Shown: in pieces, positions 9,579-39,493 of the stretch
Position numbering within the stretch: the first letter of the stretch is position 1
How the letters are laid out: each line of letters opens with the position of its first letter
Assembly: GCA_964604705.1 (NCBI GenBank)
Contig: CAZSAP010000001.1
Coordinates: 363,500-427,499 of the forward strand
Source: an uncultured bacterium
GTDB taxonomy: Bacteria; Oederibacteriota; JAAXVQ01
DNA: 64,000 nucleotides
Direction: 5' to 3'
Notes under the pieces: generated by a model
Told to the model about the DNA's origin: nothing
Databases searched by the model: none
Seen by the model: the letters and a program-made list of their open reading frames with translations, nothing else
Translations under genes and position numbers: made by a program

Positions 9579-9600
9579 TTACATGCTCCTTATAATTGAC

Positions 9601-21612: not shown

Positions 21613-21848
21613 ATCTCACTCTTCTATATTGAATTGACAAAATTCAGCGCGGGCCAATTTATAACATTTTTGTATTTATGTAAAGAATTTAAACTACTTT
21701 TTTGAAAAAAAACCATACTTCCAGACATACACTTCCCTAAACCCTGAACATCCGGATAAATTTTTCTTCGCAATAAAACACACATAAAAGAAGCTTTTCC
21801 AGAAATCACAACTACCAAAATGTAGTTAAAATACAAATTCCTACACCT

Positions 21849-21865
21849 TCGGCATATTAATTGCT
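21849..21865 (+). promoter_or_regulatory. Sigma-54 (-24/-12) promoter of amtB1-glnK1
   Basis: cGGCATattaaTTGCt: GG at 21851-52 and GC at 21863-64 (N10 spacing), about 60 nt upstream of the ATG at 21926. Confidence 0.55.
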
Positions 21866-21925
21866 TTTAACTACAACTTCGAAATTATGATAAAAATCAT
21901 TACGCGAATCAAAGGAGCTACACAA

Positions 21926-23248
21926 ATGAAGCGTTATTTTTCACGATGGCTTAAACACCCCAGCTGGGCATTCGTCATTCTAGGCGTATTGGGTTTACCT
22001 GCGTTGGCCGCCGCCGAAGGATTGGCCATCAGCGCTGGAGACACTGCCTTTATTTTCTTGACGACCGCCTTAGTCATGCTCATGACTCCGGGATTAGGCT
22101 TGTTTTACGGAGGCATGGTCCGTCAAAAAAACGTGCTCGGCACCATCATGCAAAGTTTTGTGGCCGTGGGCTTCATCAGTTTGCAATGGGCGCTGATTGG
22201 CTATTCCCTCTCGTTTGGCCATTCCCAGCACGGGCTCATTGGCGGTTTGGACTTTTTAGGCTTGCATAACGTCGGACAAGGGCCCAACGCCGATTACGCA
22301 GCCACCATTCCTCACATGTTGTTTATGCTCTTTCAATGTATGTTTGCCGTGATCACCCCCGCGCTCATCAGCGGTGCGTTTGCTGAGCGCTTTAAATTTT
22401 CGACCTTTGTCGTGTTTATCCTGCTTTGGGCCACCGTCGTCTACGATCCCATTGCCCATTGGATTTGGGGGAACGGAGGGTGGTTACGCCAATTGGGGGT
22501 GCTTGATTTTGCCGGAGGCATGGTTGTACATATTTCCGCAGGCATGGCCGCCTTGGTGGCCGCACTCCTGGTAGGCAAACGCAAAATGACCGCCAACGCC
22601 ACCATCCTGCCCCACAACATGACCATGGTTTTGCTCGGAACCGCCTTGCTTTGGTTCGGGTGGTTTGGGTTTAACGCCGGGTCCGCCCTGGCGGCCAATG
22701 GTGTGGCCATCTCGGCTTTTGTCTGCACCAATTTCGCCGGTGCCTCCGCCATGGTGGTCTGGATGCTGATTGAATGGTTGGTTCGCGGTAAAGCTACGGC
22801 CTTAGGTGCGGCTTCAGGCGCCATTGCCGGTTTGGCGGCCATTACCCCAGGGTCCGGATTTGTAAAACCGCATGACGCCATCATTATAGGCGCCATCGCC
22901 TCCCCACTTTGTTTTTACGCAATCCAATTAAAGAACAAGTACAACTACGACGATACGCTCGATGCGTTCGGCGTACACGGCATCAGCGGCATATGGGGTA
23001 CATTGGCCACCGGACTCTTCGCCACCACCTCGGTGAATCCGGCGGGAGCCAACGGATGGTTCTACGGCAACCCCAAACTTTTTTGGATTCAGAGCTTCGG
23101 CGCCTTGGTCGTCGCAGCTTTTGCGTTCGCAGCCACATTTATCATTATCAAAGTACTCGATCTAACCATGGGCATGCGCTTAAAGGATCACGAAGAAATG
23201 ATTGGAATGGATTTGACGCAACATGGCGAGGCAGGATATCATATGTAA
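21926..23248 (+). CDS. amtB: Ammonium transporter (Amt family), copy 1
   Basis: ATG at 21926 with AAGGAG 8 nt upstream (the track ORF starts at 21887). Signal-like N-terminus. Amt motifs DFAGG.VVHI and GAAS/GAIAG. Confidence 0.88.
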   Translation: MKRYFSRWLKHPSWAFVILGVLGLPALAAAEGLAISAGDTAFIFLTTALVMLMTPGLGLFYGGMVRQKNVLGTIMQSFVAVGFISLQWALIGYSLSFGHSQHGLIGGLDFLGLHNVGQGPNADYAATIPHMLFMLFQCMFAVITPALISGAFAERFKFSTFVVFILLWATVVYDPIAHWIWGNGGWLRQLGVLDFAGGMVVHISAGMAALVAALLVGKRKMTANATILPHNMTMVLLGTALLWFGWFGFNAGSALAANGVAISAFVCTNFAGASAMVVWMLIEWLVRGKATALGAASGAIAGLAAITPGSGFVKPHDAIIIGAIASPLCFYAIQLKNKYNYDDTLDAFGVHGISGIWGTLATGLFATTSVNPAGANGWFYGNPKLFWIQSFGALVVAAFAFAATFIIIKVLDLTMGMRLKDHEEMIGMDLTQHGEAGYHM

Positions 23249-23321
23249 CAACTCCCCCTCACTCCCCCTCTTTACCAAAAAGGGGGGACGGGGGGCGTTA
23301 TTCCACGAAAGGAATATTTCC

Positions 23322-23663
23322 ATGAAAAAGATTGAAGCCTTTATTCAACCCGAACAATTCGAGAGTGTTAAGAAAGAGCTTTTTGCCGCTCAGGTCTTTA
23401 AAATGAGCGTTTCCCAAGTGCGCGGATGTGGCCAACAAAAAGGCTATACCGAAAGTTTTCGGGGACAAATCGTAGAGATAAATCTCTTGCCCAAAACCAA
23501 GATCGAAATTGCCGTTAATGAAGATTTCGTACAACCCACCATTGACGCCATTATCCGAGGGGCGCGGACCGGTAATATCGGCGATGGCAAAATTTTCGTG
23601 ACGGAATTGCTGCAATGCATTCGCGTCCGCACCGGAGAGACCGGTCACGACGCCATTGGTTAA
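23322..23663 (+). CDS. glnK: Nitrogen regulatory protein P-II, copy 1
   Basis: MKKIEAFIQPEQFESVKKELF...RTGETGHDAIG. 113 aa, AAGGA RBS, immediately downstream of amtB1. Confidence 0.88.
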   Translation: MKKIEAFIQPEQFESVKKELFAAQVFKMSVSQVRGCGQQKGYTESFRGQIVEINLLPKTKIEIAVNEDFVQPTIDAIIRGARTGNIGDGKIFVTELLQCIRVRTGETGHDAIG

Positions 23664-23933
23664 TTGCTCCCCAAGAAAATCGCATCAACCTCCAACCTTC
23701 AAACAACAATGTCGCGATTCCCTTCTGAGGGATCGCCTAATTTAAAAAATACATTTATGAATTAATTATATAATTCGATACACAATTGAAATAATAACAA
23801 ATATGATTTTTGGTCTTTTTTAAAAAAAAAATTTCATCCCACAAAAAAACTCCCCGTGTCTATCCTTTAATTTCAAGACTTTACATCAAGATCCTTTACC
23901 CCGGCTTGTAATAAACACTACCATCCTTTTCCA

Positions 23934-23951
23934 TTGGCATCCATCTTGCAT
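23934..23951 (+). promoter_or_regulatory. Sigma-54 (-24/-12) promoter upstream of the porin gene
   Basis: TTGGCAT-CCATC-TTGCA: GG at 23936-37 and GC at 23948-49, about 140 nt upstream of the ATG at 24094. Confidence 0.55.
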
Positions 23952-24093
23952 TAGTCCTAGGCAAATGGAAATAACCCACGGTTAATGACTATTGGGTAGG
24001 AAAGGAGCTGGCTCGCTATGAAACCCACTAAGGCAAAGATTTAACGACAGATCTACCGAGTGCGTTCAAATAAAAAAACACAAGGAGAATATC

Positions 24094-25170
24094 ATGAAAA
24101 AAATCACGATTTTGAGTTTACTGAGCTTGAGTCTAATCGGAACTATGGCAGGAGCGGAAGAAGCAAAAAGCTTGAAGTGGTACGACAAAATTGCTGTAAG
24201 CGGTTACTTGGATGCCTATTACCAAGCTAATTTCAATGGTTTAAGCGGTAGCATCACCGGTCGGGCGTTCGACAGCCGGCAGAATGAATTTTCGTTCTCT
24301 GGTGCGAAGGTCTCCATGTCCACAACGGATCCTTCCACCGGTGTCGGTGGTGTGCTCGATTTGCTGTACGGCCCCACGTCCATGTTGGTAACAGGCGGAC
24401 CTGTCGAGCAGGCGTTCGCGACCTTCTCCTTAGGCCCCATCGGATTCAAGGCCGGTAAGTTCACCACGCATGTCGGCTACGAAGTTATTGAAACACCCCT
24501 AAACTTGAACTACAGCCGTTCGATTTTGTTCAACCAAGTTCCCTTCTACCATGTCGGCGCCCTGGCCACTTACACCCCGCTGGAAGGTGTTGCCATGATG
24601 GCTGGAGTGGTTAACTCGAATTCAGCTGAACAAGCCAATGACGAAGCCAAGGATTATGCAGCCCAAGTAACTTTCAGCAAGATTGCCGGACTTAGCTTGA
24701 TTGCCAATTATTATCTCGAATCCAATCGTGCGGCCACAGCCGATGCCCCTTTTGAAAACACCCACTATATGGAAGTCGTGGGCAATTACCAAGCCTTGCC
24801 TGTACTTGGATTAGGTTTGGACTATCTGTACAAAACCACGCTGCCATCTCCGGCCAAAGATGCTGACGGCAATCCGCTCGGCAGCGCCTCCAGCACCAAG
24901 TCGCAAGGGTATGCACTCTATGCAAACTACGTCACACCGATCAGCGGACTTTCGGTGCTTCCGCGCTTTGAACAGTGGTACGCCCCGGACGTGTACGCCT
25001 TGGCCTTCGACTATACGCTGACGCTTAAATACGCCATGGGGGCTCTTACCCATGCCCTCGAACTCCGCAAAGATATCGCCTACCCAGGCGTATACGCCCC
25101 CAAGGCCGGAGAAACTGAATTGCTTAGCGATCAAATGACTTTAACGTACGGAGTTATGTACAGTTTCTAG
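24094..25170 (+). CDS. Outer-membrane beta-barrel porin (signal peptide, C-terminal Phe)
   Basis: MKKITILSLLSLSLIGTMAGA signal peptide. Alternating amphipathic strands. Ends ...TLTYGVMYSF. Confidence 0.65.
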   Translation: MKKITILSLLSLSLIGTMAGAEEAKSLKWYDKIAVSGYLDAYYQANFNGLSGSITGRAFDSRQNEFSFSGAKVSMSTTDPSTGVGGVLDLLYGPTSMLVTGGPVEQAFATFSLGPIGFKAGKFTTHVGYEVIETPLNLNYSRSILFNQVPFYHVGALATYTPLEGVAMMAGVVNSNSAEQANDEAKDYAAQVTFSKIAGLSLIANYYLESNRAATADAPFENTHYMEVVGNYQALPVLGLGLDYLYKTTLPSPAKDADGNPLGSASSTKSQGYALYANYVTPISGLSVLPRFEQWYAPDVYALAFDYTLTLKYAMGALTHALELRKDIAYPGVYAPKAGETELLSDQMTLTYGVMYSF

Positions 25171-25245
25171 CAAACCGTTTCTTCGATTTAAGCACGAAAA
25201 CCACTTGAACGAATGGGCGTTTAAGCATACAATTATCCCTTCAAA

Positions 25246-25285
25246 CCCCTGTCCGTGATTGCTGCGGACAGGGGTTTAATTTTAA
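25246..25285 (+). terminator. Rho-independent terminator of the porin gene
   Basis: cccctgtccg-tgattgctg-cggacagggg, a perfect 10-bp stem, followed by tttaatttt. Confidence 0.7.
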
Positions 25286-25313
25286 ATCCGTAAAAGAAGG
25301 ATAGTAAACGTCC

Positions 25314-27287
25314 ATGTTTAAAAAGCTTAAACAATTGTTTCTCGGTAAAGCCATCAACCCCACCCAAGCCGGCATCTTTCATCAGCTCAGTCTGGTCGCC
25401 TTTATGGCTTGGGTCGGTTTGGGTGCCGACGGGCTTTCCTCGTCAAGTTACGGTCCCGAAGAACTCTTTCGGGCCTTAGGACCCGAACACACCCATTTGG
25501 CCTTATATTTGGCTGTGGCTACGGCCATTACCGTGTTTATCATTGCCGCCAGCTACATGCAAATCATTAAGCTCTTCCCAGCCGGTGGCGGCGGTTATGT
25601 GGTTGCCAGCAAGTTCCTGGGATCCAAAGCCGGGGTGGTTTCAGGTACCGCCCTTATCGTCGATTACATCTTAACCATCTCCCTATCTATTGCCGCCGGT
25701 GTGGACGCGATATTCAGCTTTTTGCCTCCGGAATGGATCGGCGCCAAAGTGACTACCGAGGCCGCACTATTGTTGATCCTTATTTGGATGAACATGCGCG
25801 GACTAAAAGAAAGCATCAAAGTATTAATGCCTATTTTTATTGCTTTTTTAGTCACCCATGTCATCTTACTCTCGGCCGGCATTTTCGGACACGCCCACGG
25901 TCTCCCCAACGCGGTACAGGCCACGTTCAGCGAAACGCAACAAACCATTTCCCAAATCGGCTGGTTTGGCCTGTTGGCGCTCCTCTTACGCGCCTACAGC
26001 TTGGGCGCCGGTACCTATACTGGAATCGAAGCCGTTTCCAATGGTATGTCCACCTTGCGTGAACCCCGGGTTCAAACCGGACATAGAACCATGTTGTACA
26101 TGGCGATTTCCTTGGCCATCACCGCCGGCGGCATCTTGCTCAGCTACATGTTGTGGGATGTTCGAATACTTCCCGGAAACACCCAAACGCTCAATGCCGT
26201 ACTCACAGAAAAAGTAATGGGTGGTTGGCAATGGGGGAACATCCCCATCGGTCAATGGCTTATCTACCTCACATTAATTTCCGAGGCGCTCCTTTTGTTC
26301 ATCGCTGCCCAAACTGGGTTCGTGGGAGGTCCCACCGTCCTGGCCAACATGGCAGTGGACTCCTGGGTCCCCCACCGTTTTGGCGATCTCTCCGATCGAC
26401 TGGTTCGTACCAACGGAATTATATTCATGGGCATCACATCCTTGGCCATCCTGATACTGGCCAAAGGAAGTGTGCATATTATGGTGGTGCTATACTCCAT
26501 TAACGTCTTCATCACCTTCTCCCTTTCCCAATTGGGTACCTGTCTGCACTGGTGGAAAATACGCAAGACCGACAAACAATGGTTTTCCGGATTTATGATC
26601 AACGGCATCGGACTCATTTTAACCACACTTATTTTAGTAGTGACCACCGTGCTCAAATTCACTCAAGGCGGTTGGATGACGTTGGTCATCACCGGCGGGT
26701 TGGTAATTCTGTGCGCGGTTATTAAGTTCCATTATTCCAACATACGCAAAGCCTTAGGTCGTTTGGATGAACTTTTGACCAACCTCACGGTTACTAATCC
26801 CCATCCGGTTACTGCCGAGTGCGATCCAACACTCCCGACCGCGATTCTGCTGGTCAGTGGCTACAACGGACTCGGGATTCACTCCATCTTCTCGATCCGA
26901 AAGCTTTTCCAAGATAAGTTCAAGAATTTCGTCTTCATTTCCGTGGGACGCGTGGATTCCAGTCGGTTTAAGGGGATTGAGGAAATCGAAAACTTAAAGC
27001 TCGCAACTGAAAAAAGCCTACAGCAATATGTAACCATGGCTCAGCATATGGGATACGCAGCCGAGTACCGATATGTGCTGGGTACCGACGTTATCGAAGA
27101 AATCGAAAAAATGTGTGATGAATTGGCTCGCAACTTCAGCGAACCGATTTTCTTTGCCGGGAAATTGATCTTTGCCAAGGAAAACTTTTTCTCGAAAATA
27201 TTGCACAATCAGACGGCCTTGGAAATCCAACGCCGCCTGCTTTTCAAAGGTAACAACATGGTCATCGTACCCATACGCGTTTTATAG
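25314..27287 (+). CDS. APC-superfamily permease with ~200-aa C-terminal cytoplasmic domain
   Basis: 657 aa. Twelve predicted TM segments with an APC-like GxG-rich TM1, plus a soluble C-terminal domain. Confidence 0.65.
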   Translation: MFKKLKQLFLGKAINPTQAGIFHQLSLVAFMAWVGLGADGLSSSSYGPEELFRALGPEHTHLALYLAVATAITVFIIAASYMQIIKLFPAGGGGYVVASKFLGSKAGVVSGTALIVDYILTISLSIAAGVDAIFSFLPPEWIGAKVTTEAALLLILIWMNMRGLKESIKVLMPIFIAFLVTHVILLSAGIFGHAHGLPNAVQATFSETQQTISQIGWFGLLALLLRAYSLGAGTYTGIEAVSNGMSTLREPRVQTGHRTMLYMAISLAITAGGILLSYMLWDVRILPGNTQTLNAVLTEKVMGGWQWGNIPIGQWLIYLTLISEALLLFIAAQTGFVGGPTVLANMAVDSWVPHRFGDLSDRLVRTNGIIFMGITSLAILILAKGSVHIMVVLYSINVFITFSLSQLGTCLHWWKIRKTDKQWFSGFMINGIGLILTTLILVVTTVLKFTQGGWMTLVITGGLVILCAVIKFHYSNIRKALGRLDELLTNLTVTNPHPVTAECDPTLPTAILLVSGYNGLGIHSIFSIRKLFQDKFKNFVFISVGRVDSSRFKGIEEIENLKLATEKSLQQYVTMAQHMGYAAEYRYVLGTDVIEEIEKMCDELARNFSEPIFFAGKLIFAKENFFSKILHNQTALEIQRRLLFKGNNMVIVPIRVL

Positions 27288-27353
27288 CATACCTTGGGGA
27301 CAAGGCATTCCTTGCCCTACCATTAACTAACGGTTTTCGCGGAGCTATACACC

Positions 27354-28724
27354 ATGACGTCCATAGCCGAGTATTGGTCCAGTTTAAGCGCCGGCAAGGT
27401 GCTATTAAACATTTTTCCCTTCGCCTTGTTGTTACTGCTTATCGCCGTTATGCCACTGTGGAACTCGGTCGCCCATTGGTGGGAAAAAAACACCAACAAA
27501 TTAATCGTCGCACTTGTTTGTGGAAGCGCCGGGGTTCTTTTGTATGTAATCCCAACCCACGACGGCGCCCATCTTCTAAATACCGTTTTGGAGTATGCGG
27601 CGTTTATCAGCCTCTTGGCCGCACTTTTCATTGTCAGCAGCGGCATCGTTATTTCCGGTGCGTTTGCAGGTTTCCCCTGGATCAATACACTGTTTCTAGG
27701 CATCGGCGCCTTGTTGGCCAGTTTACTGGGCACAACCGGCGCCAGCATGCTCTTGATTCGCCCCCTTATCCGAGCCAATCGCCTGCGCAAACATAAAACC
27801 CACATTATCGTTTTCTTTATTTTTATCGTTAGCAATTGCGGCGGACTCTTAACCCCCCTCGGCGACCCCCCTTTATATCTCGGTTTTTTGCGCGGAGTTC
27901 CTTTTTTCTGGACCCTCCAACTCTTCCCCGAGTGGTTGGTAACCAACTTTCTGTTGCTGGTGGTTTTCCATTTCCTGGATGAACGGTATTTTTTCAAGGA
28001 AGAACTCGCCACTAAAAACGAATTGGCTCAAGAAATCGCCAATGCTGAAAAACCACTGCATATTCGCGGAAAACGCAATTTCATTTATCTCGCCGCGGTT
28101 CTCGCCACTGTGCTTTTATCCGGTTCGGTGTTACCCTCTGTCTTGCACGCGTGGCTGACTCCCGAACACGCCGAACATTGGGCCAAGGTCGCCCAAATCA
28201 TCCTTTTGGGTAGCATTGCCTGGTTTTCTTTCCGCAACACACCGTCCTCCATTCATGAACACAATCATTTTAGTTCTGCCCCGATTGTCGAAGTCGCAGT
28301 CTTGTTCTTGGGTATTTTCGGAGCCATGCTCCCAGCCTTGGCCGTGTTGGAACATTCCGCCCCGCGACTTCCCATTGACCAAGCTTGGCACTATTTTTGG
28401 CTTACCGGACTCCTGAGCAGCTTTTTGGATAATGCCCCGACATATATGTCTTTTGCAGCCTTGGCTGCCGGTAAATCGAACCTCAATGCTGAGCACCTTG
28501 GAGCCTTGGCGGCCCAGGCACCCAATTTGTTAAAAGCCATTGCCACAGGCGCTGTGTTTATGGGCGCCAACACCTACATTGGCAACGGCCCCAATTTCAT
28601 GGTCAAATCCATTGCCGAACATGCGCACATTAAAATGCCCTCTTTTGGCGGTTACATGCTCTGGTCCTTCGCTGTACTTATTCCTATTTTCTTCATTAAC
28701 ACGCTTATTTTTTTCAAACCTTAA
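27354..28724 (+). CDS. ArsB/NhaD-superfamily ion transporter (NhaD/arsenite-permease-like)
   Basis: 456 aa polytopic membrane protein. Motifs GGLLTPLGDPPL and FLDNAPTYMSF are typical of the ArsB/NhaD/CitMHS permease fold. Confidence 0.6.
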   Translation: MTSIAEYWSSLSAGKVLLNIFPFALLLLLIAVMPLWNSVAHWWEKNTNKLIVALVCGSAGVLLYVIPTHDGAHLLNTVLEYAAFISLLAALFIVSSGIVISGAFAGFPWINTLFLGIGALLASLLGTTGASMLLIRPLIRANRLRKHKTHIIVFFIFIVSNCGGLLTPLGDPPLYLGFLRGVPFFWTLQLFPEWLVTNFLLLVVFHFLDERYFFKEELATKNELAQEIANAEKPLHIRGKRNFIYLAAVLATVLLSGSVLPSVLHAWLTPEHAEHWAKVAQIILLGSIAWFSFRNTPSSIHEHNHFSSAPIVEVAVLFLGIFGAMLPALAVLEHSAPRLPIDQAWHYFWLTGLLSSFLDNAPTYMSFAALAAGKSNLNAEHLGALAAQAPNLLKAIATGAVFMGANTYIGNGPNFMVKSIAEHAHIKMPSFGGYMLWSFAVLIPIFFINTLIFFKP

Positions 28725-28875
28725 TCCCCCGACCCTTCTTACTTTCGTTTACAAATTATAACCAAATTGTATTTATTTATATTTTTACTTCTTATTTGTA
28801 TTTTATTTCATAATTACAACTAAAATGTCATACCGCTTTTTCCTGTATTTAAAGGTTTTTCAGCCTTCTTGTGAC

Positions 28876-28893
28876 TTGGCACAGCCTTTGCTT
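28876..28893 (+). promoter_or_regulatory. Sigma-54 (-24/-12) promoter of amtB2-glnK2
   Basis: cTTGGCAC-AGCCT-TTGCTt: TGGCAC at 28877-82 and TTGC at 28888-91. This is a perfect consensus, about 85 nt upstream of the ATG at 28978. Confidence 0.7.
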
Positions 28894-28977
28894 TATATGG
28901 AGCAGTTGAATAGGCAAGGGTGTCAACCGTCAACGATGAGACGACACATCATCGTAAATACGAAAGGAGTGGTTCTC

Positions 28978-30306
28978 ATGTTTAAAGACATACTGGTACG
29001 TTGGTTCAAGAAGTGGGGATTGCAAGCAGGTGCACTAACGCTTTTGGGATTGCCTTCGGTGGTCTCAGCCGCCGAAGGGGTTCCGCTTAACACAGGGGAT
29101 ACAGCCTTTGTTATGGCGTCCTCGGGTTTGGTCATGCTCATGACGCCGGCCTTGGGATTGTTTTACGGAGGCATGGTGCGCCAAAAAAACGTCCTTGCCA
29201 CCATCATGCAAAGTTTCATTGTACTCGGCTTGATCAGTGTCCAATGGGCACTCTTTGGCTACTCGCTGGCTTTCGGTCCTGACCACGGACATCTCATTGG
29301 CGGACTCGACTTTCTCGGACTTAACGGAGTAGGTCAAACACCCAACGCCGACTATGCGGCGACCATACCCCATCAAGTATTCATGGTATTCCAAGCTATG
29401 TTCGCGGTTATCACGCCGGCGCTCATCAGCGGAGCCTTTGCCGAACGCGTTAAGTTTTCCAGTTTTCTAGTCTTTATTCTGCTTTGGTCAACGTTCATCT
29501 ACGACCCCTTGGCACATTGGGTATGGGGTGTGGGTGGCTGGTTGCGCAACTTAGGTGCCTTGGATTTTGCCGGCGGTACGGTAGTGCACATCGCCTCCGG
29601 GTCGGCAGCTTTGGTGATGGCATTGTATCTCGGCAAGCGTCGGGGTTACCCCAAAGCCTCGATCATGCCACATAACATGACCATGGTCTTGATCGGAACA
29701 GCCTTGCTTTGGTTTGGTTGGTTCGGTTTCAATGCGGGTTCCGCCCTCTCGGCCAATGGTTTGGCGGGTACGGCGTTTATTGTGACGAACTTAGCCGCGG
29801 CCGCAGCAATGCTGTCCTGGGCGTTTGTGGAGTGGATTGTGCGCAAGAAACCCACCGCATTGGGCGCCGCTTCAGGTGCCGTCGCCGGTTTGGTTGCCAT
29901 CACACCGGCATCGGGTTTTGTTGGTCCCATGGATGCCATTATCATCGGTTTGCTGGTATCCCCCATCTGTTTTGGGGCCATTCAGATCAAGAACAAGCTC
30001 GGGTACGATGATTCATTGGATGCCTTCGGCGTGCACGGCGTAGGTGGAACCTGGGGCGCCATTGCCACCGGATTGTTTGCCAATGTTTCAATCAACTCAG
30101 CAGGCGCCAACGGTTTGTTCTACGGCAACCCCAAGCTTCTTGGGATTCAAGCGGTTGCGGTTGTGGCCACCGCCGTCTTCTCGATGTTGGGAACATACAT
30201 TTTGGTGTTCTTGGTGGATAAGGTCATGGGCATGCGGGTAGCAGAACACGAGGAACAAATCGGTCTGGATTTAACCCAACACGGTGAAGCCGGATATCAC
30301 ATGTAA
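28978..30306 (+). CDS. amtB: Ammonium transporter (Amt family), copy 2
   Basis: ATG at 28978 with AAGGAG 8 nt upstream (the track ORF starts at 28825). Paralog of 21926..23248 with the same C-terminal ...[12 protein letters not shown]. Confidence 0.88.
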
Positions 30307-30377
30307 GACTGTTGGATCACAATTATCGTAGGGACGGACGAAAATACGTACCCTACATTAAAAGGAGGATTAACATC

Positions 30378-30719
30378 ATGAAAAAAATCGAAGCGTACAT
30401 TCAACCCGAGCAATTTGAAAATGTAAAAAAAGAATTATTTGCAGCCGAGGTATTTAAAATGACCGTCTCCCATGTTCGTGGCTGCGGACAGCAAATGGGC
30501 TACACCGAAAGTTTCCGGGGACAAGTGGTCGAAATCAATTTGTTGCCCAAGATCAAGCTCGAGATCGCCGTGAACGACAACTTTGTGCAACCCACCATCG
30601 ACGCCATCATCAAAGGAGCGCGTACCGGGAACATAGGTGATGGGAAAATTTTCGTATTGGATTTGCCGCAGTGCATTCGTGTGCGCACGGGTGAAACCGG
30701 AAAAGACGCCATCGGCTGA
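30378..30719 (+). CDS. glnK: Nitrogen regulatory protein P-II, copy 2
   Basis: [21 protein letters not shown]...[22 protein letters not shown]. Confidence 0.88.
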
Positions 30720-30739
30720 TTCAAGCCGTAGGCACACCA

Positions 30740-30780
30740 CGCGAGGGCGGCCCTCCCCCGGCTGCTCTCGCGTTTTTTTT
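30740..30780 (+). terminator. Rho-independent terminator after glnK2 (also faces the convergent GNAT gene)
   Basis: GC-rich hairpin cgcgagggcggccctcccccggctgctctcgcg followed by T8. Confidence 0.65.
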
Positions 30781-31270
30781 AGGTATTTAATTTCAGGGCC
30801 AGAAAAATCCCCGCATGCTGATGTTCGTTGTAACGGGCCACGGGTTTGAAGCCATAGCGTTCAAACATAACAAGCGCGGATTTCTGTTCGTGGTGGAGCG
30901 CCACCAAAACTTCAAAATACTCCGCCTTACGGGCAAAGGTCAGAGCTTGATCAACCAACGCTTTCCCCCACTTACGTTTGCGAAATTCCGGCATGACGTA
31001 AAGCCTGCGTAACTCACATGTTTTTTTGGCCAAGGGCATGACCCCAACCATCCCAACCGCATGCGGTTGGCCCAAGGTTCGCACCAACCAGATCGATCCT
31101 CGCGGCGGCGCATAGATGTTCAGGGGCTGGGTGATGTCCTGATCCAGGGCATGAAACTCCGGAACCATATCCAATTCCTGAAAATACGTTTTCGTGAGTT
31201 TTATAAATTCCGACAGATTCTCGGGCGAAAGCACTTCCAATTTAAATTCCGGATTTTGCATGTTAGGCAT
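30779..31270 (-). CDS. GNAT-family N-acetyltransferase
   Basis: 163 aa. Acetyl-CoA-binding motif RRLYVMPEFRKRKWGKALV (the R/Q-x-x-G-x-G/A region). Confidence 0.75.
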   Translation of the reverse strand: MPNMQNPEFKLEVLSPENLSEFIKLTKTYFQELDMVPEFHALDQDITQPLNIYAPPRGSIWLVRTLGQPHAVGMVGVMPLAKKTCELRRLYVMPEFRKRKWGKALVDQALTFARKAEYFEVLVALHHEQKSALVMFERYGFKPVARYNEHQHAGIFLALKLNT

Positions 31271-32531
31271 TTCCCTTCTGTCGTGACATAAATGTGCGTA
31301 GGGTGCGAATCCGTTCCACCAGGGGTGGATGCGAGTAATGAAAGGCCGCGTACCAGGGATGTGGGTGCAAATTACTGAGGTTGTCTTTAAACAAACGAAT
31401 CAGCGCATCGGCCAGGGCGTCCGGGTCCCGGGTTATCTCTGCGGCAAACGCATCGGCTTCCCGTTCGTGCTTCCGGCTAAAATAGCAGCTTATGGGTTCG
31501 AAAAAAAAGGCGAGCACCGACCCGATGAAGAGCAGCCCCACCACATGGGCATAAAACGATCCGTGGTGCAGATGAAAGATGTCCGAGATCCAAGATGCAC
31601 GCAAGCCCCAGAAAGCGGCGTAGCACACACCCAAGGCTACGATTTCAGTAATCACCAAACGCTGCAAAATATGTTTCTTTTTCCAATGCCCCACTTCGTG
31701 CGCCAAGACTGCCAAGAGTTCGCGGGGAGCGGTTTGTTGGAGCAAGGTATCGAATAAGACAATGCGTTTCACCGGGCCAATGCCCGTAAAATAGGCATTG
31801 GTATGCTTGCTACGTTTGGAGGCATCGCTTTCAAACACACGGCTGACGCGCAAACCCGCCTTGGCCATCAAATCACGAATCGCCTCCACCAGTTCCGGTT
31901 GTTCCACAGGTTTAAATTTATTAAACAGCGGCTCAATAACATACGGTGATAGCAGCAGCATAATCAGCGAAAAAACAAAGAAGAAAACCCACACCCAGAG
32001 CCACCAGGTCTCAGGGAAACGTTGGATCAGGATCAAGCCGCCACCCAGCAGCACACCCATCAGTACCGAAGACAACACCAATGACTTTATGGTATCGGTT
32101 ACCCAAAGCCACGGTGTCATGGTGTTGAAACCAAAGCGTTGTTCAAGCCGGAAGGTCTGATACCACCCCAACGGAAGCCCAATCATGGTTGTCAAGATCA
32201 CCAGCCCCAGAAAATAAAAGATCCCTTGAACGACAAACGGCAACGCAGGAAAAGACATCCAGACATTGTACGCATCCCAAAGTCCACTGTAAAAAAAGAC
32301 GACGACACTGGCTGCGTTGAAAAGCGCAACCACGTTGGCAAACTTCATTTTGGCCAGAGTATAGGCTTGTGTCTTGGCCAAAAGCTCTGTCTGAACCACG
32401 GCCTCAAACCCTTCTGGAACGACCATCCCATAGCGTTCAAGATGCTTCCGGTTGAGATATTCCAGGACATACTCCACGGCCACCGTCAGAAGAAAGAACC
32501 CAAGTATCCACCACCGCCACGTTTCCAGCAT
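31263..32531 (-). CDS. M48-family zinc metalloprotease (Ste24/HtpX-like), membrane-embedded
   Basis: 422 aa. N-terminal TM helices. HEXXH in LAHEVGHWKKKH. Confidence 0.8.
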   Translation of the reverse strand: MLETWRWWILGFFLLTVAVEYVLEYLNRKHLERYGMVVPEGFEAVVQTELLAKTQAYTLAKMKFANVVALFNAASVVVFFYSGLWDAYNVWMSFPALPFVVQGIFYFLGLVILTTMIGLPLGWYQTFRLEQRFGFNTMTPWLWVTDTIKSLVLSSVLMGVLLGGGLILIQRFPETWWLWVWVFFFVFSLIMLLLSPYVIEPLFNKFKPVEQPELVEAIRDLMAKAGLRVSRVFESDASKRSKHTNAYFTGIGPVKRIVLFDTLLQQTAPRELLAVLAHEVGHWKKKHILQRLVITEIVALGVCYAAFWGLRASWISDIFHLHHGSFYAHVVGLLFIGSVLAFFFEPISCYFSRKHEREADAFAAEITRDPDALADALIRLFKDNLSNLHPHPWYAAFHYSHPPLVERIRTLRTFMSRQKGNA

Positions 32532-32616: not shown

Positions 32617-33399
32617 CTACCGGTCCTTTTTGGTCGGAGCCGGCGGAATGCTCTCACGCCCCAACTTCCTAAACCCTAAGTACCAATCCAAATTATAGTA
32701 GTCCTTCCCAGCGTTGTCTTGACGTTCTTTGGCAGACGAAAGCGTGTTCGGTACGGGAACAATCACATCTTCGCCCGGTTGCCAATCCGAAGGGGTGGAT
32801 ACCGAGTACGCATCGGCGGTTTGCAGCGCCACAATCATACGTTTTATTTCCATGAAATTCCTGCCCATGGAGGCCGGGTAAAACAACATGCTCCGGATAC
32901 GGCCTTTGGGATCCACAATAAAGAGCGCACTGTAAGTTCGCCCCTCGTCGGCCACACTGGGAAACAGGCCGTATTTTTTCAGAATCTCTATTTTGGGATC
33001 GGCCACCAACGGCATGGCGACATTGACCCCCTTCATGTTCTTATACACGATTTTCTCTTGCAAGGAACGCAGCCACGAGATGTGACTGGTCAAGCTGTCT
33101 CCGGAAATGCCCACCCAATCACAGTTAATGGATTTGAATTCCGGAGCCATGGCCGCAATGGTCAGCACTTCCGTGGTCGCCACCGGAGTAAAATCCGCCG
33201 AGTAGCTGAACAGAACGACCCATTTATTTTTGTAATCCTTAGGAAATGTAATCTTACCCTGTGTGGTATCGGCCGTAAACGCCGGGGCATCTTCCCCAAT
33301 CATCGGTGCGCGCAGCAGTTCTTCAGCCCAAAGACTCGAAGCGCCAAGGCCTAAAAACACACTCGCCAAGATTAAACGTCGGATACTTAATTTCAGCAT
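32617..33399 (-). CDS. Secreted peroxiredoxin-6-like (1-Cys Prx fold) protein with Ala in place of the peroxidatic Cys
   Basis: Start ATG at 33399 (GGGGGAG RBS). Signal peptide MLKLSIRRLILASVFLGLGASSLWA. Motif WVVLFSYSADFTPVATTEVLTIAAMAPEF corresponds to Prx6 DFTPVCTTE. The Ala codon is GCG at 33178-33180. Confidence 0.7.
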   Translation of the reverse strand: MLKLSIRRLILASVFLGLGASSLWAEELLRAPMIGEDAPAFTADTTQGKITFPKDYKNKWVVLFSYSADFTPVATTEVLTIAAMAPEFKSINCDWVGISGDSLTSHISWLRSLQEKIVYKNMKGVNVAMPLVADPKIEILKKYGLFPSVADEGRTYSALFIVDPKGRIRSMLFYPASMGRNFMEIKRMIVALQTADAYSVSTPSDWQPGEDVIVPVPNTLSSAKERQDNAGKDYYNLDWYLGFRKLGRESIPPAPTKKDR

Positions 33400-33518
33400 A
33401 CTCCCCCCCAAAAAGCCCTTTCGCACAAATGCGATGATTAGTTTAATTATCGGCACAGGTTTTGTCAAGCTGTGCTACAAAAACGATTTTACTGTTGCTT
33501 TGACCAAATACCACTCCT

Positions 33519-34724
33519 TTATTCCTCCAGCCGTGCTTCTTGGCATTTGGCATCCAAACACCGAACCACCTGGGGAATAAAAACCACAATCCCAACCAAC
33601 GAAAGCGCCGCCGAGGCCGCAAACGCCATGGAGAGCCCGTAATGCTTCCCCAGCCAGCCAATGCCCGGCCCTACAATAAAATACGCAAGGCGGAAGAGCC
33701 AGCTTTGGATGGACATAACCGTGGCGCGTTTGTCGCTGAAGGTTTCTTCATGAATATGCTTTCCCAAAATGGGAAAGGTTAAGCCTCTTAGCAAAGTGAC
33801 GCTGTAGGCACCCGCCAAGGCCCAGAACCCCGGCGCCCAGGCCAAAAAGAGATACCCCAACACCACGGGAATCGGCAACAGCCAGAGTATCCGGGTAGGT
33901 CCCACTTTGGCTTCCCATTTGTAGGCATAATGGCTGCCCAGCGCGGCGGGCAACGACAATGCGGCCCACAAGGCTCCGAAGAGCCAAACGGGCACATGTT
34001 TTTCTTGCCACAGGGGCTGGTACAGCCACACCCCCAACATGGTGCTTAGGCCACAGGCCGCCATGAGGGGAATCACCCAGCGCACAACCTTGCTTTTCAC
34101 AAACACAAACCGGGCGATTTTATACAAGCCGTACCAGGTCCCGCGCGGGTGACCGTTAAATACGCGATGCGGCTCATGAATGTTTAAGCATAAAACAAAG
34201 GCCACAAGCGCAGCCACTCCCGTGAGAAAAAAGGTCACCTCCAGCGGCAGCCACCCGGCCAGGAACCCTCCTGCCAGGGCCGAGACGCCTTCCCCCCAAT
34301 GATTGCCGGCGTATTGTTTGCCCTCCACCTGGGTGAACCGTTCGGTTTCCTTAAGTTCAATGAGGCTTTCGTACACCAAGGCCGTATCGGTTCCCGAGAG
34401 AAACCCAAAGGCCAAACCCAAATAAATTTCAGCAAAGACAAACTGGCCAAATGTATGCGCAAACGTGTAGAACATCCAGCCCGTGGCCGCAATGCCCGTA
34501 CTTAGCAACAGGGTTTTCTTCCGACCCAAACGGTCGCCAATGAACCCGGTGGGAACTTCAAACAGGAGCACCGAAACCGAAAAGATGGCCTGCAACCAAA
34601 AAACATCCAAAAGATCCAAGCCGTATTTGTTCCAATACAGCGTGATGATCGGAATGCAAAACATCATGGCAAAGAGAATGCGCACCCAGGCGATGATGGT
34701 TATGTTTTTTCGGTATAAATTCAT
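33519..34724 (-). CDS. MFS transporter
   Basis: 401 aa, 12 TM segments. MFS motif GDRLGRKKTLL after TM2. Confidence 0.8.
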   Translation of the reverse strand: MNLYRKNITIIAWVRILFAMMFCIPIITLYWNKYGLDLLDVFWLQAIFSVSVLLFEVPTGFIGDRLGRKKTLLLSTGIAATGWMFYTFAHTFGQFVFAEIYLGLAFGFLSGTDTALVYESLIELKETERFTQVEGKQYAGNHWGEGVSALAGGFLAGWLPLEVTFFLTGVAALVAFVLCLNIHEPHRVFNGHPRGTWYGLYKIARFVFVKSKVVRWVIPLMAACGLSTMLGVWLYQPLWQEKHVPVWLFGALWAALSLPAALGSHYAYKWEAKVGPTRILWLLPIPVVLGYLFLAWAPGFWALAGAYSVTLLRGLTFPILGKHIHEETFSDKRATVMSIQSWLFRLAYFIVGPGIGWLGKHYGLSMAFAASAALSLVGIVVFIPQVVRCLDAKCQEARLEE

Positions 34725-35129: not shown

Positions 35130-36353
35130 CTAGCGTTTCTGTCCTTGGGCATCAAAGGTCCGCACAAAATCAATCAGCGCCTGGTACCGCATGCGCGCCA
35201 CACCTACGCGTTCATCGGCGGCACCGTAACTGATCAACAAATCATCCCCGACTTTAATCAAGCCCGTGACAAAGACACACGGGGTTTTAAACTTGTTGGG
35301 CATCTCCCAGGGGTCCTGGGCAAACATCACACGTTCCGAGCAGCGGTGGGTGATTTTTGGGAAACCCTTCGCTTGTTCTTCCAAAATCATAAACGACTGG
35401 GTATACCCGACCACTGCATCTTGCTTGCCGTGGTAACACAAGAGCCATTCCTTCGCCGAGATCCGGATGGGCGGAGTGGAGGCCCCAATGCGGTCCCCTT
35501 CCCAAGGAAAGACCGGCGAGGCCACCAAGGTTTGGCTCTTGGTCTCGCTCCAAAGGGTCTTGAGACTCTCCGAGGCACAGATAAACATCGAGGGCAATTT
35601 TTCCGTAACCCCGGGATAGTTCGTGGGCACAAACGGACGGTGGAGGCTGACGTACTGCGGGCGTCCGTTGATCGTCAATTTTTCCGGAAACAACACCACA
35701 TCGCGGTCCTCACCGTATTGCGGATCGGTCAGGTGAATCACATATTGAAAGGCACGTTCGTATTCGCCCTTGGCCAAGAGCGCCAAATCCACTTTGTACA
35801 AGACATTAACCGTGACATTCTCCGAAGCGGCTTTGCCAAAGGGATTTTCCGCGGTCTTGATCCACAGCGGCGCACACTGCGAGGGTTCGTCATGAATCCA
35901 GTACGGACCCGGAGGCATCAAACGGCAGGCCACAATGACGTAGCACTGACCTTCCAAGAAAAACAAACGCGGGTCCTCAATGCAGCCGTTGGCATGATTG
36001 GTAACCGCTTCCCCGTCGCAGTTGCGAATGGTGACATCCTTGATCTCATACGCCAAGGCCGGGGCCAAGGCCGGTCGGGAAAAATCCGGAGTCCAGGTCC
36101 GGCCTTTATCCTCACTGTAGGCGTAGCCCAGGAAGATAGGATACGGCAGCGGCCGTCCGGGAATTTGCTTCTGCGGCCATGGACCTGTGGCGCGAAACAA
36201 CATATGGATGCGTCCGGTGTTCGGATCTTCGATCACCGCGGGGTTAAGCACCATCTCATCGGCCCAAGGTGAGCCTTTTTGCGGTTCCAACACCAGGGTG
36301 CGTGAGTGAATAAAGTCAATGGTCATGGGATTAAAGCTCCTTGAAAAAGTCAA
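35130..36353 (-). CDS. Glycoside hydrolase family 130-like (beta-mannoside phosphorylase/glycosidase family)
   Basis: 407 aa. VLNPAVIEDPNTGRIHMLFRATG, EDPRLFFLEGQCY and LFPEKLTINGRPQYVSLHRP match GH130 conserved blocks from memory. Confidence 0.6.
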   Translation of the reverse strand: MTFSRSFNPMTIDFIHSRTLVLEPQKGSPWADEMVLNPAVIEDPNTGRIHMLFRATGPWPQKQIPGRPLPYPIFLGYAYSEDKGRTWTPDFSRPALAPALAYEIKDVTIRNCDGEAVTNHANGCIEDPRLFFLEGQCYVIVACRLMPPGPYWIHDEPSQCAPLWIKTAENPFGKAASENVTVNVLYKVDLALLAKGEYERAFQYVIHLTDPQYGEDRDVVLFPEKLTINGRPQYVSLHRPFVPTNYPGVTEKLPSMFICASESLKTLWSETKSQTLVASPVFPWEGDRIGASTPPIRISAKEWLLCYHGKQDAVVGYTQSFMILEEQAKGFPKITHRCSERVMFAQDPWEMPNKFKTPCVFVTGLIKVGDDLLISYGAADERVGVARMRYQALIDFVRTFDAQGQKR

Positions 36354-36553: not shown

Positions 36554-39493
36554 ATGTTTCACTTCGTACATAAAATCCTGCGTCTGTTTTCCCTTTTATG
36601 TCTGCTCGTCTTCACATCCGCCGTATCTCAGGCGACGACTTATACGGTCACCTCCGATGCCGACAGCGGCGCCGGTTCCTTACGTGATCAGTTGACCTTG
36701 GCCAACACCAACCCCGGAGCGGATATCATTGATTTTTCCGGTCCCATGTACATTACCGTAACCAGCGGGGCCTTGGCCGTCACCGACCGGGTCCGCCTCG
36801 ACGGCGGTGGCCAGGTGGTGCTTGCCAGTAACGGAAGCCTCATTGCACTGCGTCTGGTGGGAAGCAGCCAAGGCAGCACGATTACCGGCATGGCGTTTGT
36901 CAAGGCCACGGCCATGTACACGCCGGCGTTGGAAATCGCCACCAACAACAACCGTCTTTACGGCTGCCGCATCGGCACCGACTGGAACGACTCCCCAGGC
37001 TTGGGCAGCTATTATGGCTGCAGCGTCTATGGGTCGTTCAATGACATCGGCGGCTCCACTCCGGCCGAACGCAATGTTTTTGCGAACAACAGCATTGGCC
37101 TGCAAACCATGAACACCTGGTGTTGCCGCGTTCGCGGGAATTATTTCGGCCTAAATTCCTCAGGCACAGGTGCCCTGGCCAACATCTATGGGATTGTCGC
37201 CGATTACAATACCCGAGCAACATTGTTTGGAGGCGATCGCCTGGCCGGTGAGGGCAACGTGATAAGCGGCAACAGCGCCTACGGTGTTTATATGGACTCC
37301 ACGGCGTTTGGAAACACACTGTGCGGAAACATTGTTGGACTTACACCTGCCATGGACGCCCGCATAGCCAACCAGTTCGGCATTAGCGTCTACGGAGCCC
37401 GGGGCAACGCCTTCGGTTTGCCGGGCAGCGGTTATGAAAACATTATTTGCGGGAGCTCGGCAAATGGGTTGGAGCTCACGGGAAATGTAGGTTCCGAACC
37501 CGTTCCGCGCTACAACACCATCCGCAACAACTATATCGGTATCACCCCCAACGGAACCGTTTTCGCCAACGATCGCGGAATCTATTTAAACCACGTGGAA
37601 TACACCCTGATCGGAGGCGATTACCTGCTGCAACAGGGCAACCTTATCTCCGGCAATTACAACGAGGGGATTTACTTGTGCGACGGCAACAACAATTCCG
37701 TATGCGGCAATTCCATTGGCACCGATCCTACGGGCAACAACAGCGTACCCAATTCCTACGGGATCTATCTGGGCGGAGGCAGCGGCAACATCCTGGGCAA
37801 CACCTCCACCGGCAGCAGCGTGCTCGGCAACTTAATCTCAGGCAACAATTATCATGGTATATATCTGGATAAATACGTTTTCTCAGCGCCGTTGGTCAAC
37901 AACAGCATAGCCGGCAACCTCATAGGCATCAACCTGGCCAACAACGCGGCCCTGCCCAACGGACGTTCGGGCATCTATGTCAACAATGCAAGTTTTACCC
38001 GTATCGGTGGTCCGGGTGGAGATTTGCAAAACACCATTGCCGGCAATACCCATTACGGCATTGCCGTGGCCAACAGTTCGGATACAACCATCCAAAGCAA
38101 CTACCTTGGAACCGACACTACCGGCACACTGCAAATCAGCAACCAGTTAAACGCAATTCAAATCTCATCGTCCCCACGCACCTTGATCGGCGGCGTGGGC
38201 GGCAACCTCGGGAATCTCATTTGCGGTACCGGAGCCGCAGGCGTGGCCGGCATTTCCCTCAACAACAGCAGCGGCAACACCCTTGCAGGCAATGCCATCG
38301 GCGTGCTTTCCACGGGCGTTCCGGCCTCGCCCAGTTTTACCCATGCTGTTTTTCTGACCAACACCTGCACCGACTCCCTGATCGGCCAACCCACAGGCGG
38401 CCTCGGCAACCTGATGGCCGGCACCACGTACGGCATCACCCTTGGCAACCATACCTGCATTCGAAACTCGTTTTACTCCAACACCGTTTGTGCCTTCGGC
38501 ACCCAGGGTATCCAACTGCTCAGCGGAGCCAATGCCAGTAAAACCGCACCTGTGATTTCCACGGTCGGATTAAGCCTCGCGCAAGGCACGTCCGGCGCCA
38601 ACGACCACATCCAATTGTTCCTCTCCGATCGTGGCGCTGGGGTCAACGGAGGCAGCTTGCGCCTGGTGGGTGAAGGCTCGGCAGACGGCAGCGGCAATTG
38701 GTCCATTGGCGTTTCGGGCCTTCAATACGGCGACTATGTTTCAGCCCTAGCCACGAATGCATCCGGCAGCACTTCCGGCTTTAGCCTGAATTCGGTGGTC
38801 GCCTTGCCTCCGTCTCCCACGCCAAGCCGGACAACCACTTCCACAACCACCCCCACCCCCACGCTCACGGCGACGGTCACACCAACGCCCACAGCCTCCG
38901 CCAGTGCCTCTCCGTCTCCCACAGAAACCCTTACGGCCACAGCCACACCTACGGGCACAGCATCCCCCACGATCACCCCAACCCAAACCCCAACGTCCAC
39001 AGCGACCTTGACCCCAACCATTACCACCACCTACACGGTTTCCTGCACAGCCACGCCCACAAGCACCGTAACCTTCACCTGCACTCCCTCCTCCACCTTC
39101 ACGATCACCCTTACGCTCCCGCCAAGTTTCACGGCCACACATACAACAACACCTTATCCGACTGAAACGGCAACCCCTACGTCTTCCCTCACACCCACCA
39201 TCACCTCCACGCTCACGGCGCAAACTGTAGTACTCTCTCCCTGGGTAGGTACTGCTTTCCCCAATCCCGCACGAGGGCAAGTTAAATTTATTTTACCCGC
39301 GGCCTTGGCCAGCGAAATAACGGTTTACAATCTTTCCGGCGAGCGGATTGCAAGCGTGCGTGAAAACCAAGCTTATACCGAACCCCATATCATCGTCTGG
39401 GATTGTACCGGCATAGCCCCAGGCATCTATGTGGCTGAAGTGAAGGTGGATGGAAAATGCGTCAAACGCATTAAATTTGCATTAGTCAAATAG
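36554..39493 (+). CDS. Secreted CSLREA-motif beta-helix protein with long Thr/Pro linker and T9SS-type C-terminal domain (cargo H; the only plus-strand member)
   Basis: 979 aa. MFHFVHKILRLFSLLCLLVFTSAVSQATTYTVTSDADSGAGSLRDQLTLAN. More than 25 GN..G beta-helix turns. A ~180-aa T/P/S linker. C-terminus ...GIAPGIYVAEVKVDGKCVKRIKFALVK. Confidence 0.8.
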   Translation: MFHFVHKILRLFSLLCLLVFTSAVSQATTYTVTSDADSGAGSLRDQLTLANTNPGADIIDFSGPMYITVTSGALAVTDRVRLDGGGQVVLASNGSLIALRLVGSSQGSTITGMAFVKATAMYTPALEIATNNNRLYGCRIGTDWNDSPGLGSYYGCSVYGSFNDIGGSTPAERNVFANNSIGLQTMNTWCCRVRGNYFGLNSSGTGALANIYGIVADYNTRATLFGGDRLAGEGNVISGNSAYGVYMDSTAFGNTLCGNIVGLTPAMDARIANQFGISVYGARGNAFGLPGSGYENIICGSSANGLELTGNVGSEPVPRYNTIRNNYIGITPNGTVFANDRGIYLNHVEYTLIGGDYLLQQGNLISGNYNEGIYLCDGNNNSVCGNSIGTDPTGNNSVPNSYGIYLGGGSGNILGNTSTGSSVLGNLISGNNYHGIYLDKYVFSAPLVNNSIAGNLIGINLANNAALPNGRSGIYVNNASFTRIGGPGGDLQNTIAGNTHYGIAVANSSDTTIQSNYLGTDTTGTLQISNQLNAIQISSSPRTLIGGVGGNLGNLICGTGAAGVAGISLNNSSGNTLAGNAIGVLSTGVPASPSFTHAVFLTNTCTDSLIGQPTGGLGNLMAGTTYGITLGNHTCIRNSFYSNTVCAFGTQGIQLLSGANASKTAPVISTVGLSLAQGTSGANDHIQLFLSDRGAGVNGGSLRLVGEGSADGSGNWSIGVSGLQYGDYVSALATNASGSTSGFSLNSVVALPPSPTPSRTTTSTTTPTPTLTATVTPTPTASASASPSPTETLTATATPTGTASPTITPTQTPTSTATLTPTITTTYTVSCTATPTSTVTFTCTPSSTFTITLTLPPSFTATHTTTPYPTETATPTSSLTPTITSTLTAQTVVLSPWVGTAFPNPARGQVKFILPAALASEITVYNLSGERIASVRENQAYTEPHIIVWDCTGIAPGIYVAEVKVDGKCVKRIKFALVK

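Follow-up and report, generated by a model that had tools for sequence, protein, structure and literature searches.

The gene and its catalytic columns

We analysed a stretch of 64,000 nucleotides (the window; contig CAZSAP010000001.1, positions 363,500 to 427,499 of the forward strand) from an uncultured bacterium of the lineage Oederibacteriota. At 32617..33399 its minus strand carries a gene that an earlier note on this DNA had described as a Prx6-type peroxiredoxin homologue with a signal peptide, in which alanine replaces the peroxidatic cysteine (Cp). The open reading frame (ORF) runs from an ATG at 33399 to a stop codon at 32617 and encodes 260 residues. A longer alternative ORF starts with TTG at 33468; we took the ATG as the start because the orthologues and the database copy begin there, and because the TTG overlaps a promoter-like TTGACA. 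All column counts given here refer to an alignment of 205 relatives gathered in two database searches, which comprises the eight members of the clade to which the window protein belongs and 197 relatives outside this clade. The gene has the following features.

32617..33399, minus strand: pseudo-peroxiredoxin gene, 260 amino acids including the signal peptide, coordinates including the stop codon (ORF, translation, Pfam, NCBIfam and an AlphaFold2 [AF2] model)
33325..33399, minus strand: predicted signal peptide, residues 1-25, with a putative signal peptidase I cleavage site after ...SLWA and before EELL
33202..33204, minus strand: Tyr66 in place of the Prx6-subfamily His of the FSHP motif; codon TAC; His in 197/197 relatives, Tyr in 8/8 clade members
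33178..33180, minus strand: Ala74 at the Cp column; codon GCG; TGC in the sister proteins, GGC, GCC/GCG or CCC/CCG in the clade
32929..32931, minus strand: Ser157 in place of the active-site Arg; codon AGT; VRAVF has become YSALF; Arg in 197/197 relatives, Ser or Asn in 8/8 clade members
32674..32742, minus strand: segment of the C-terminal arm, residues 220-242, with three replaced cysteines (now Leu220, Asn236 and Gly242); Cys in 157-190 of the 197 relatives
32620..32652, minus strand: conserved C-terminal tail SIPPAPTKKDR; SIPPAPxKK is invariant in the clade and common to the catalytic sisters P0006, P0121 and P0122

The window protein is a member of the peroxiredoxin superfamily by descent, as profile scores and fold both indicate. 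It matches Pfam AhpC-TSA (E-value 2.6e-27, 95.6 bits against a cut-off of 26), Pfam 1-cysPrx_C (2.5e-9, 37.4 bits against 21.1), and the NCBIfam model PRK13189 'peroxiredoxin' (235 bits, above the cut-off of 211), so that the Prx6-type assignment of the earlier note is borne out. The exact protein (P0001 in our set) is already in a public protein collection, where it is annotated as 'peroxiredoxin'.

The identity of the replaced residue is unambiguous. The minus-strand codons GAT TTT ACT CCG GTG GCG ACC ACG GAA encode DFTPVATTE, a segment that phmmer searches against the PDB aligned column by column with the DFTPVCTTE of Aquifex AhpC2 (5ovq), of the Sulfolobus 1-Cys peroxiredoxin (6q5v), and of Aeropyrum ApPrx. 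The Cp column contains cysteine in 196 of the 197 relatives, and Ala, Pro, or Gly in all eight clade members. The alignments to solved structures and the 205-sequence alignment therefore agree in placing alanine exactly at the Cp column, as had been claimed.

The losses go further than the earlier note had recorded, since they include the catalytic Arg, the Prx6 His, three C-terminal cysteines and, in four other clade members, the active-site Thr. The window protein keeps this threonine (T71); its column is Thr in 197/197 relatives, Leu or Met in four of the eight clade members, and Ser in one. In the arm, Leu220 occupies the column of the 'SCG' cysteine (Cys in 190/197 relatives), Asn236 that of ApPrx C207 (157/197; Asn or Ser across the clade), and Gly242 that of ApPrx C213 (158/197; Gly or Ser across the clade). 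Among the hallmarks of a PREX-type enzyme, Cp within PxxxTxxC at the start of helix alpha2 and the FSHP His are absent, and the Arg/Thr pair is reduced to T71. The redox-active arm cysteines typical of archaeal and Aquifex-type peroxiredoxins, in a CxDWWFC-like motif, are likewise missing. Having lost all of these residues but T71, the window protein cannot reduce peroxides by thiol chemistry, judging from its sequence. The description of the protein as catalytically dead thus survives closer inspection, and it is almost certainly no peroxidase.

One cysteine is left, C93, which is invariant in the clade and could be invoked for a residual peroxidase activity, as could a non-thiol mechanism. 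The earlier note had named it, within KSINCDW, as the place where the catalytic residue might otherwise lie. The alignment leaves Cp at Ala74, and this cysteine is equally found in 176 of the 197 catalytic relatives, so that it is a family-wide residue rather than a substitute for Cp; we therefore rejected it as a relocated catalytic cysteine. In the AF2 model it opens a beta strand that spans residues 93-99. Moreover, no member of the clade has the Arg, four lack the Cp-activating Thr, and a fifth has Ser in its place. Altogether, residual peroxidase activity is very improbable. A phospholipase motif (GxSxG) like that of PRDX6 was also considered and tentatively rejected: the column of the PRDX6 serine would fall in 'KNKW', where there is no Ser.

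The fold itself seems to be preserved. The AF2 model, built from a 90-sequence alignment, has a mean predicted local distance difference test score (pLDDT) of 87, with most of residues ~30-250 at 90 or more. Confidence is low in the signal peptide (~47-60 per 10-residue block, with several segments below 50), in the loop 141-160, and in residues 255-260 (below 50; block 251-260 has a mean of 52). Foldseek superposes the model on ApPrx structures, including the engineered 0-Cys ApPrx, with root mean square deviations mostly of 2.1-2.5 Å over ~233 columns and template modelling scores of 0.77-0.84. The equivalents of ApPrx F46 and W210 are kept (F70 and W239). The model thus supports the retention of the thioredoxin-fold core and of the C-terminal arm domain. 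Query residues 27-245 align with residues 2-221 of the 223-residue chain of 5ovq, i.e., almost to its end, and the supposed C-terminal extension of ~60 residues is therefore not an extension: it is the ordinary arm domain (1-cysPrx_C plus an arm of the archaeal/Aquifex type). Only ~15 residues (LGRESIPPAPTKKDR), the PPAP tail, lie beyond the usual end of the family.

The clade without a peroxidatic cysteine

Among ~5.8 billion clusters, the loss of Cp that characterises the window protein occurs in eight clusters at 90% identity. The Cp position is Ala in P0001 (the window protein) and P0002 (85% identical to it), Pro in P0003, P0004, P0005, P0007, and P0008, and Gly in P0016. This disposes of the idea, raised by the earlier note, that orthologues might keep the cysteine and this gene be an isolated variant: the orthologue P0002 has Ala, and in members further away Pro or Gly takes its place. 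Every member has an intact reading frame, and five members share a deletion of nine residues in the loop before the former Arg. A profile built from the eight sequences scores 434-505 bits within the clade and 371 bits for the next protein. Two members lie on contigs of metagenome-assembled genomes (MAGs) at NCBI, JAGVPM010000121 (Candidatus Goldiibacteriota) and JAAXVQ010000183 (Candidatus Firestonebacteria); a genome scan for more clade members found none beyond these two contigs. A profile search of a library of representatives at 50% identity found no separate representative of the clade, the best match (277 bits) being a catalytic protein.

The eight members are monophyletic in 100 out of 100 bootstraps of a neighbour-joining tree, with the Gly form (P0016) basal in 69 of them. 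Their nearest neighbours in this tree, P0121 and P0122, are catalytic and bear predicted signal peptides. The Cp codons are TGC in these sisters, GGC in P0016, GCC in P0002, GCG in P0001, and CCC or CCG in the Pro group. The series TGC>GGC>GCN>CCN proceeds by single-base steps in the order of the tree, which fits one ancient loss. The sequences thus support a scenario in which the clade descends from exported, catalytically intact peroxiredoxins of the Prx6/ApPrx type, and in which Cp, Arg, the Prx6 His, and the arm cysteines were lost in one ancestor of a small uncultured lineage, with the later loss of Thr in four members.

Synonymous sites are saturated between clade members (proportion of synonymous differences, pS, ~0.7), while the non-synonymous proportion (pN) is 0.11-0.14 within subgroups and omega is roughly 0.04-0.12 or less. 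Mean column identity in the clade is 73%. Saturated pS together with low pN supports the view, drawn from these comparisons, that the clade proteins are under strong purifying selection. A gene in decay, an error of assembly or sequencing, or a variant confined to one strain is then an explanation of negligible probability. Nothing speaks for it beyond the unusual residue itself, and it conflicts with the depressed non-synonymous change, with the occurrence of the same protein (100% identical) on an independent Logan assembly, and with eight intact homologues that come from different samples and share 54-85% identity with the window protein. A sequencing error had already been thought unlikely because two substitutions separate this Ala codon from Cys; the absence of Cys at this position from the seven other members of the clade strengthens the argument.

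Where does the constraint act? Residues 66-75 are the most conserved segment of the relatives (entropy 0.03) and only average in the clade (0.53), a comparison of 197 with 8 sequences of unequal depth in which only the relative pattern is meaningful. Within the clade, variation affects pocket positions 65, 71, 74, 155, and 156, and position 157 alternates between Ser and Asn. Most of the invariant changes specific to the clade are conservative (F>V, M>L, F>L, V>L, K>R, F>Y), and no new polar cluster was found among them. A segment that we had considered as an insertion specific to the clade, VYKNMKG, was rejected: catalytic relatives have it too, and it stands out as an insertion in comparison with 5ovq and ApPrx alone.

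These patterns bear on the possibility that the protein is a small-molecule binder or sensor using the former active-site pocket, for instance for a lipid, a hydroperoxide, or heme. Some peroxiredoxins bind heme or lipids independently of catalysis, and Tyr66, Asp69, Phe70, Pro72, Val73, and Glu77 are invariant around the pocket in the clade. However, the positions that line the pocket are less constrained in the clade than any other part of the protein, the nine-residue deletion precedes the former Arg in five of the eight members, and there is no new conserved cluster of polar or metal-binding residues. We regard this explanation as improbable. Because the pocket is relaxed and no polar cluster replaces it, we read the former active site as freed from constraint and not rebuilt, which would place the retained function in the fold and its surfaces. 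We rate the clade as a pseudoenzyme branch of the Prx6 family.

Other proteins of the subfamily also lack Cp. Among the best 150 representatives retrieved with the clade profile, ~27 full-length proteins have no cysteine at this column, a sample biased by the Cys-less query. One of them, P0263, is a cluster of 47 members from Staphylococcus shinii, S. xylosus, and S. pseudoxylosus (e.g., WP_107529951.1), annotated as 'peroxiredoxin'. Further examples unrelated to the clade are P0234, P0285, P0290, P0297, P0329, P0237, P0275, P0256, and P0269. These proteins mostly have Ser at the Cp column and some have Ala, Gly, Thr, or Val; Tyr is frequent at the His column, the Arg is usually kept, and most have no signal peptide. 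The genes around P0269, which is another exported protein of this kind, are unrelated and gave no functional clue. Natural loss of Cp thus seems recurrent in the Prx6 subfamily, within the bias of a sample drawn with a Cys-less profile. The searches also returned fused proteins of the Prx6 type. P0202 (373 amino acids, 20 member sequences) has an extra PF01592 domain, and P0209, P0219, P0221, P0246, and P0271 have 479-1233 amino acids; several long proteins match the peroxiredoxin profile in two stretches, with a degenerate Cp column in some.

Export and the neighbouring genes

The N-terminus (MLKLSIRRLILASVFLGLGASSLWA|EE) has a basic n-region, a hydrophobic h-region, and a c-region ending in a putative WA|E cleavage site of a type that recurs in several clade members. 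By a hydropathy heuristic, seven of the eight members have an N-terminus resembling a signal peptide, the eighth being apparently truncated there, and cytoplasmic relatives begin ~25-30 residues later than the window protein. These sequence features agree with the signal peptide that the earlier note had proposed. We rejected export by the Tat pathway: the RR pair occurs in the window protein (SIRRL) and is missing from the orthologues, which makes Sec export more likely.

The same hydropathy test finds N-termini resembling signal peptides in 78 of the 197 catalytically intact close relatives. Examples from Omnitrophota, Elusimicrobiota, and other MAGs are P0006, P0009-P0019, P0121-P0133, and similar proteins; exported Prx6/ApPrx-type peroxiredoxins with arm cysteines seem to be common in uncultured, mostly anaerobic lineages. 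Given the number of catalytic relatives that look exported, the ancestor of the clade was probably an exported, active peroxiredoxin.

Four features surround the gene in what may be one transcription unit.

33440..33468, minus strand: sigma-70-like promoter candidate TTGACA-17-TAAACT upstream of the pseudo-peroxiredoxin gene, a consensus match only
31263..32531, minus strand: Ste24-type M48 zinc metalloprotease (Peptidase_M48_N and Peptidase_M48, HEVGH), starting 85 nucleotides past the pseudo-peroxiredoxin stop codon
30779..31270, minus strand: GNAT acetyltransferase, overlapping the M48 gene by 8 nucleotides, probably the last gene of the unit
30739..30773, no strand given: strong hairpin rich in GC, located where the GNAT and P-II genes converge, 14 pairs of which 10 are G-C, followed by a T run

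No terminator-like site was found in the 85-nucleotide gap between the pseudo-peroxiredoxin and M48 genes. The hairpin is reported as a plus-strand terminator, on the side of the P-II gene, and from its position we infer a terminator role on the minus strand as well. Six clade loci extend far enough downstream to show the next gene (P0001, P0002, P0003, P0004, P0005, and P0008), and in each of them the pseudo-peroxiredoxin gene is followed by an M48 gene on the same strand, with gaps of 41-187 nucleotides. Five of these contigs continue past the M48 gene: a GNAT gene follows it in the loci of P0001, P0004, P0005, and P0008, and in that of P0002 there is a short cut-off ORF at this place. The contig of P0003 ends inside the M48 gene.

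The neighbourhood and the exported relatives together raise the question of whether the protein is a non-catalytic subunit, which would form mixed dimers or rings with an exported catalytic peroxiredoxin of the same cell and tune its activity or assembly. Its closest relatives are exported catalytic proteins of the Prx6 type, and strand 167-175, a WQPGEDV motif, and DW239Y are conserved, elements that would lie at the dimer interface in view of peroxiredoxin structures in general. On the contig of P0016 (L013:1-561), the gene just upstream encodes an exported peroxiredoxin of the BCP/PrxQ type whose motif is intact (YFYPKDNTPGCTKEAC, CxxxxC). Yet, this gene apart, no catalytic peroxiredoxin gene lies within the window or adjoins those of other clade members, and tblastn found no second peroxiredoxin gene in the 64 kb of the window. 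BCP belongs to a different subfamily, for which pairing with Prx6-type subunits is not known. A role as subunit is thus a rather unlikely alternative to a protein acting on its own.

The rest of the window provides the wider context. Upstream of the pseudo-peroxiredoxin gene, an MFS transporter and a GH130-family phosphorylase-like gene lie at 33519..34724 and 35130..36353, both on the minus strand. GH130-like and MFS genes are also present at the 85%-identical locus (L002), and distant clade members have a methyltransferase or a sulfatase instead. On the other side, the unit of pseudo-peroxiredoxin, M48, and GNAT genes converges on a nitrogen-assimilation neighbourhood (18398..30719). This block includes a glutamine synthetase (18398..19819), a GAF/sigma-54 activator (20038..21612), ammonium transporters (21887..23248 and 28825..30306), an OmpL-like porin, an amino-acid permease, a CitMHS_2 transporter, and a P-II gene within the ORF 30312..30719. 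In two related loci (L003:16529-16677 and L004:8894-9042, where the genes run off the loci), Pfam matches to AA_permease and P-II fall on one product of 612-628 amino acids, which suggests, at the level of sequence, a permease fused to a P-II domain in relatives of the window organism. Six large predicted proteins (622-979 amino acids), encoded within 4746..18202 on the minus strand and at 36554..39493 on the plus strand, carry a C-terminal Por_Secre_tail (type IX secretion sorting), and three of the six have a NosD or beta-helix region. The protein of 36554..39493 has a long linker rich in Thr, Pro, and Ser, and its Por_Secre_tail match (26.3 bits) is just below the cut-off of 27. A DUF285 repeat protein is encoded at 7659..9578 among these genes.

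Proposed function and known systems

We propose, with a probability of roughly 0.6, that the window protein is a pseudo-peroxiredoxin exported by the Sec pathway, kept by selection, and acting in the cell envelope by binding rather than by redox chemistry. Cleavage at about Ala25 would leave a mature protein of ~235 residues, which would form at least the usual peroxiredoxin dimer and would bind proteins without redox chemistry, as a holdase or an adaptor. The earlier note had likewise suggested a binding or chaperone-like role. Co-expression with the neighbouring genes for the Ste24-type M48 membrane protease and the GNAT protein is probable, and a functional tie between them is possible. There is precedent for activity of the scaffold without Cp, since the C46S mutant of the Thermococcus kodakarensis 1-Cys peroxiredoxin (TkPrx) retains high chaperone activity (PMC4416765), as does the C56S mutant of Anabaena Alr4641 (PMC4349727).

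Several observations weigh against this proposal. The chaperone activity of TkPrx is tied to dodecamers and required the arm cysteine (PMC4416765). The clade lacks both the arm cysteine needed in TkPrx and an aromatic residue at the column of ApPrx F80; T104 stands there in the window protein, and the column is Tyr or Phe in 188 of the 197 relatives and Thr, Ala, Ser, or Pro in the clade. In work on ApPrx mutants, the F80 position is reported to be part of the interface that builds the ring. The loss of the arm cysteines and of this interface aromatic makes assembly into a ring-type holdase (decamer or dodecamer) doubtful, as far as sequence can tell. The association with the protease is also open to question. 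The active site of Ste24-type proteases faces the cytoplasmic side, and an exported protein would not obviously meet it. The convergent P-II and Amt genes downstream are conserved in the clade loci as well, such that the linkage to M48 may be mere synteny within one lineage. Neither a peroxiredoxin nor a GNAT gene was found near M48 homologues (43-54% identity) in 80 metagenomic loci from other bacteria; hence, the linkage is specific to this lineage, and we rejected it as a general module. The two catalytic relatives whose loci were examined, P0122 and P0125, have other neighbours.

A bolder version of the proposal is held with much less confidence. In this version, the Cys-free exported protein would serve the envelope as a dedicated holdase or adaptor and, together with the co-transcribed M48 protease (and GNAT), make up an undescribed module of protein quality control, and natural Cp-less proteins of the Prx6 type would form a recurrent, unrecognised class of bacterial pseudoenzymes. 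We consider this unlikely.

Peroxiredoxins are defined by the peroxidatic cysteine, and yet a whole clade without it, without the Arg and His, and without the resolving cysteines evolves under strong constraint. This points to a selectable, redox-independent function of the peroxiredoxin scaffold, which in this case would be exerted outside the cytoplasm. The clade would then be a natural counterpart of the Cys-to-Ser mutants that separate chaperone from peroxidase activity, and a clean test case for what the fold can do without a thiol. It also means that the label 'peroxiredoxin' is a mis-annotation here, one that inflates the antioxidant capacity inferred for these uncultured bacteria. In the literature searched, which left out most subscription journals, we found no description of natural Cp-less proteins of the Prx6 type; all matches were engineered mutants.

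Among known systems, the best-matching solved structure is that of Aquifex AhpC2 (5ovq; E-value 2.6e-51, ~42% identity), aligned end to end over query residues 27-245 and built from the same thioredoxin-fold core and C-terminal arm. AhpC2 has the Cp (DFTPVCTTE), the His (FSHP), the Arg (VRALF), and the arm cysteines (ECADWYIC), whereas the window protein has none of them; conversely, AhpC2 lacks the predicted signal peptide and the PPAP tail of the window protein. Caulobacter PprX resembles the window protein in being a peroxiredoxin-family protein of the cell envelope, but PprX is described as active, receiving its electrons from a membrane transporter and being reduced via ScsB/TlpA (PMC3322552). 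The window protein has no redox cysteine, and no DsbD/ScsB-like gene was seen among the ORFs scanned, which cover part of the window. TkPrx C46S and Alr4641 C56S show that a peroxiredoxin fold can suppress aggregation without Cp (PMC4416765, PMC4349727) and are the precedent for how the window protein might act. Both proteins are cytoplasmic bifunctional enzymes, and the chaperone form of TkPrx is a dodecamer dependent on an arm cysteine that the window protein lacks.

The closest parallel to the loss of cysteines is found in ApPrx (ApTPx) and its '0Cys' mutants (6krk and others), on which the predicted fold superposes and whose F46 and W210 have retained equivalents; the ring-interface aromatic F80 is lost in the window protein. 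Since the structures of the engineered C50S/C207S/C213S ApPrx have been solved, the fold tolerates the loss of these cysteines. That protein was made in the laboratory and still has the Arg, the Thr, and the His, whereas the losses in the window protein are natural and extend to the Arg and the His.

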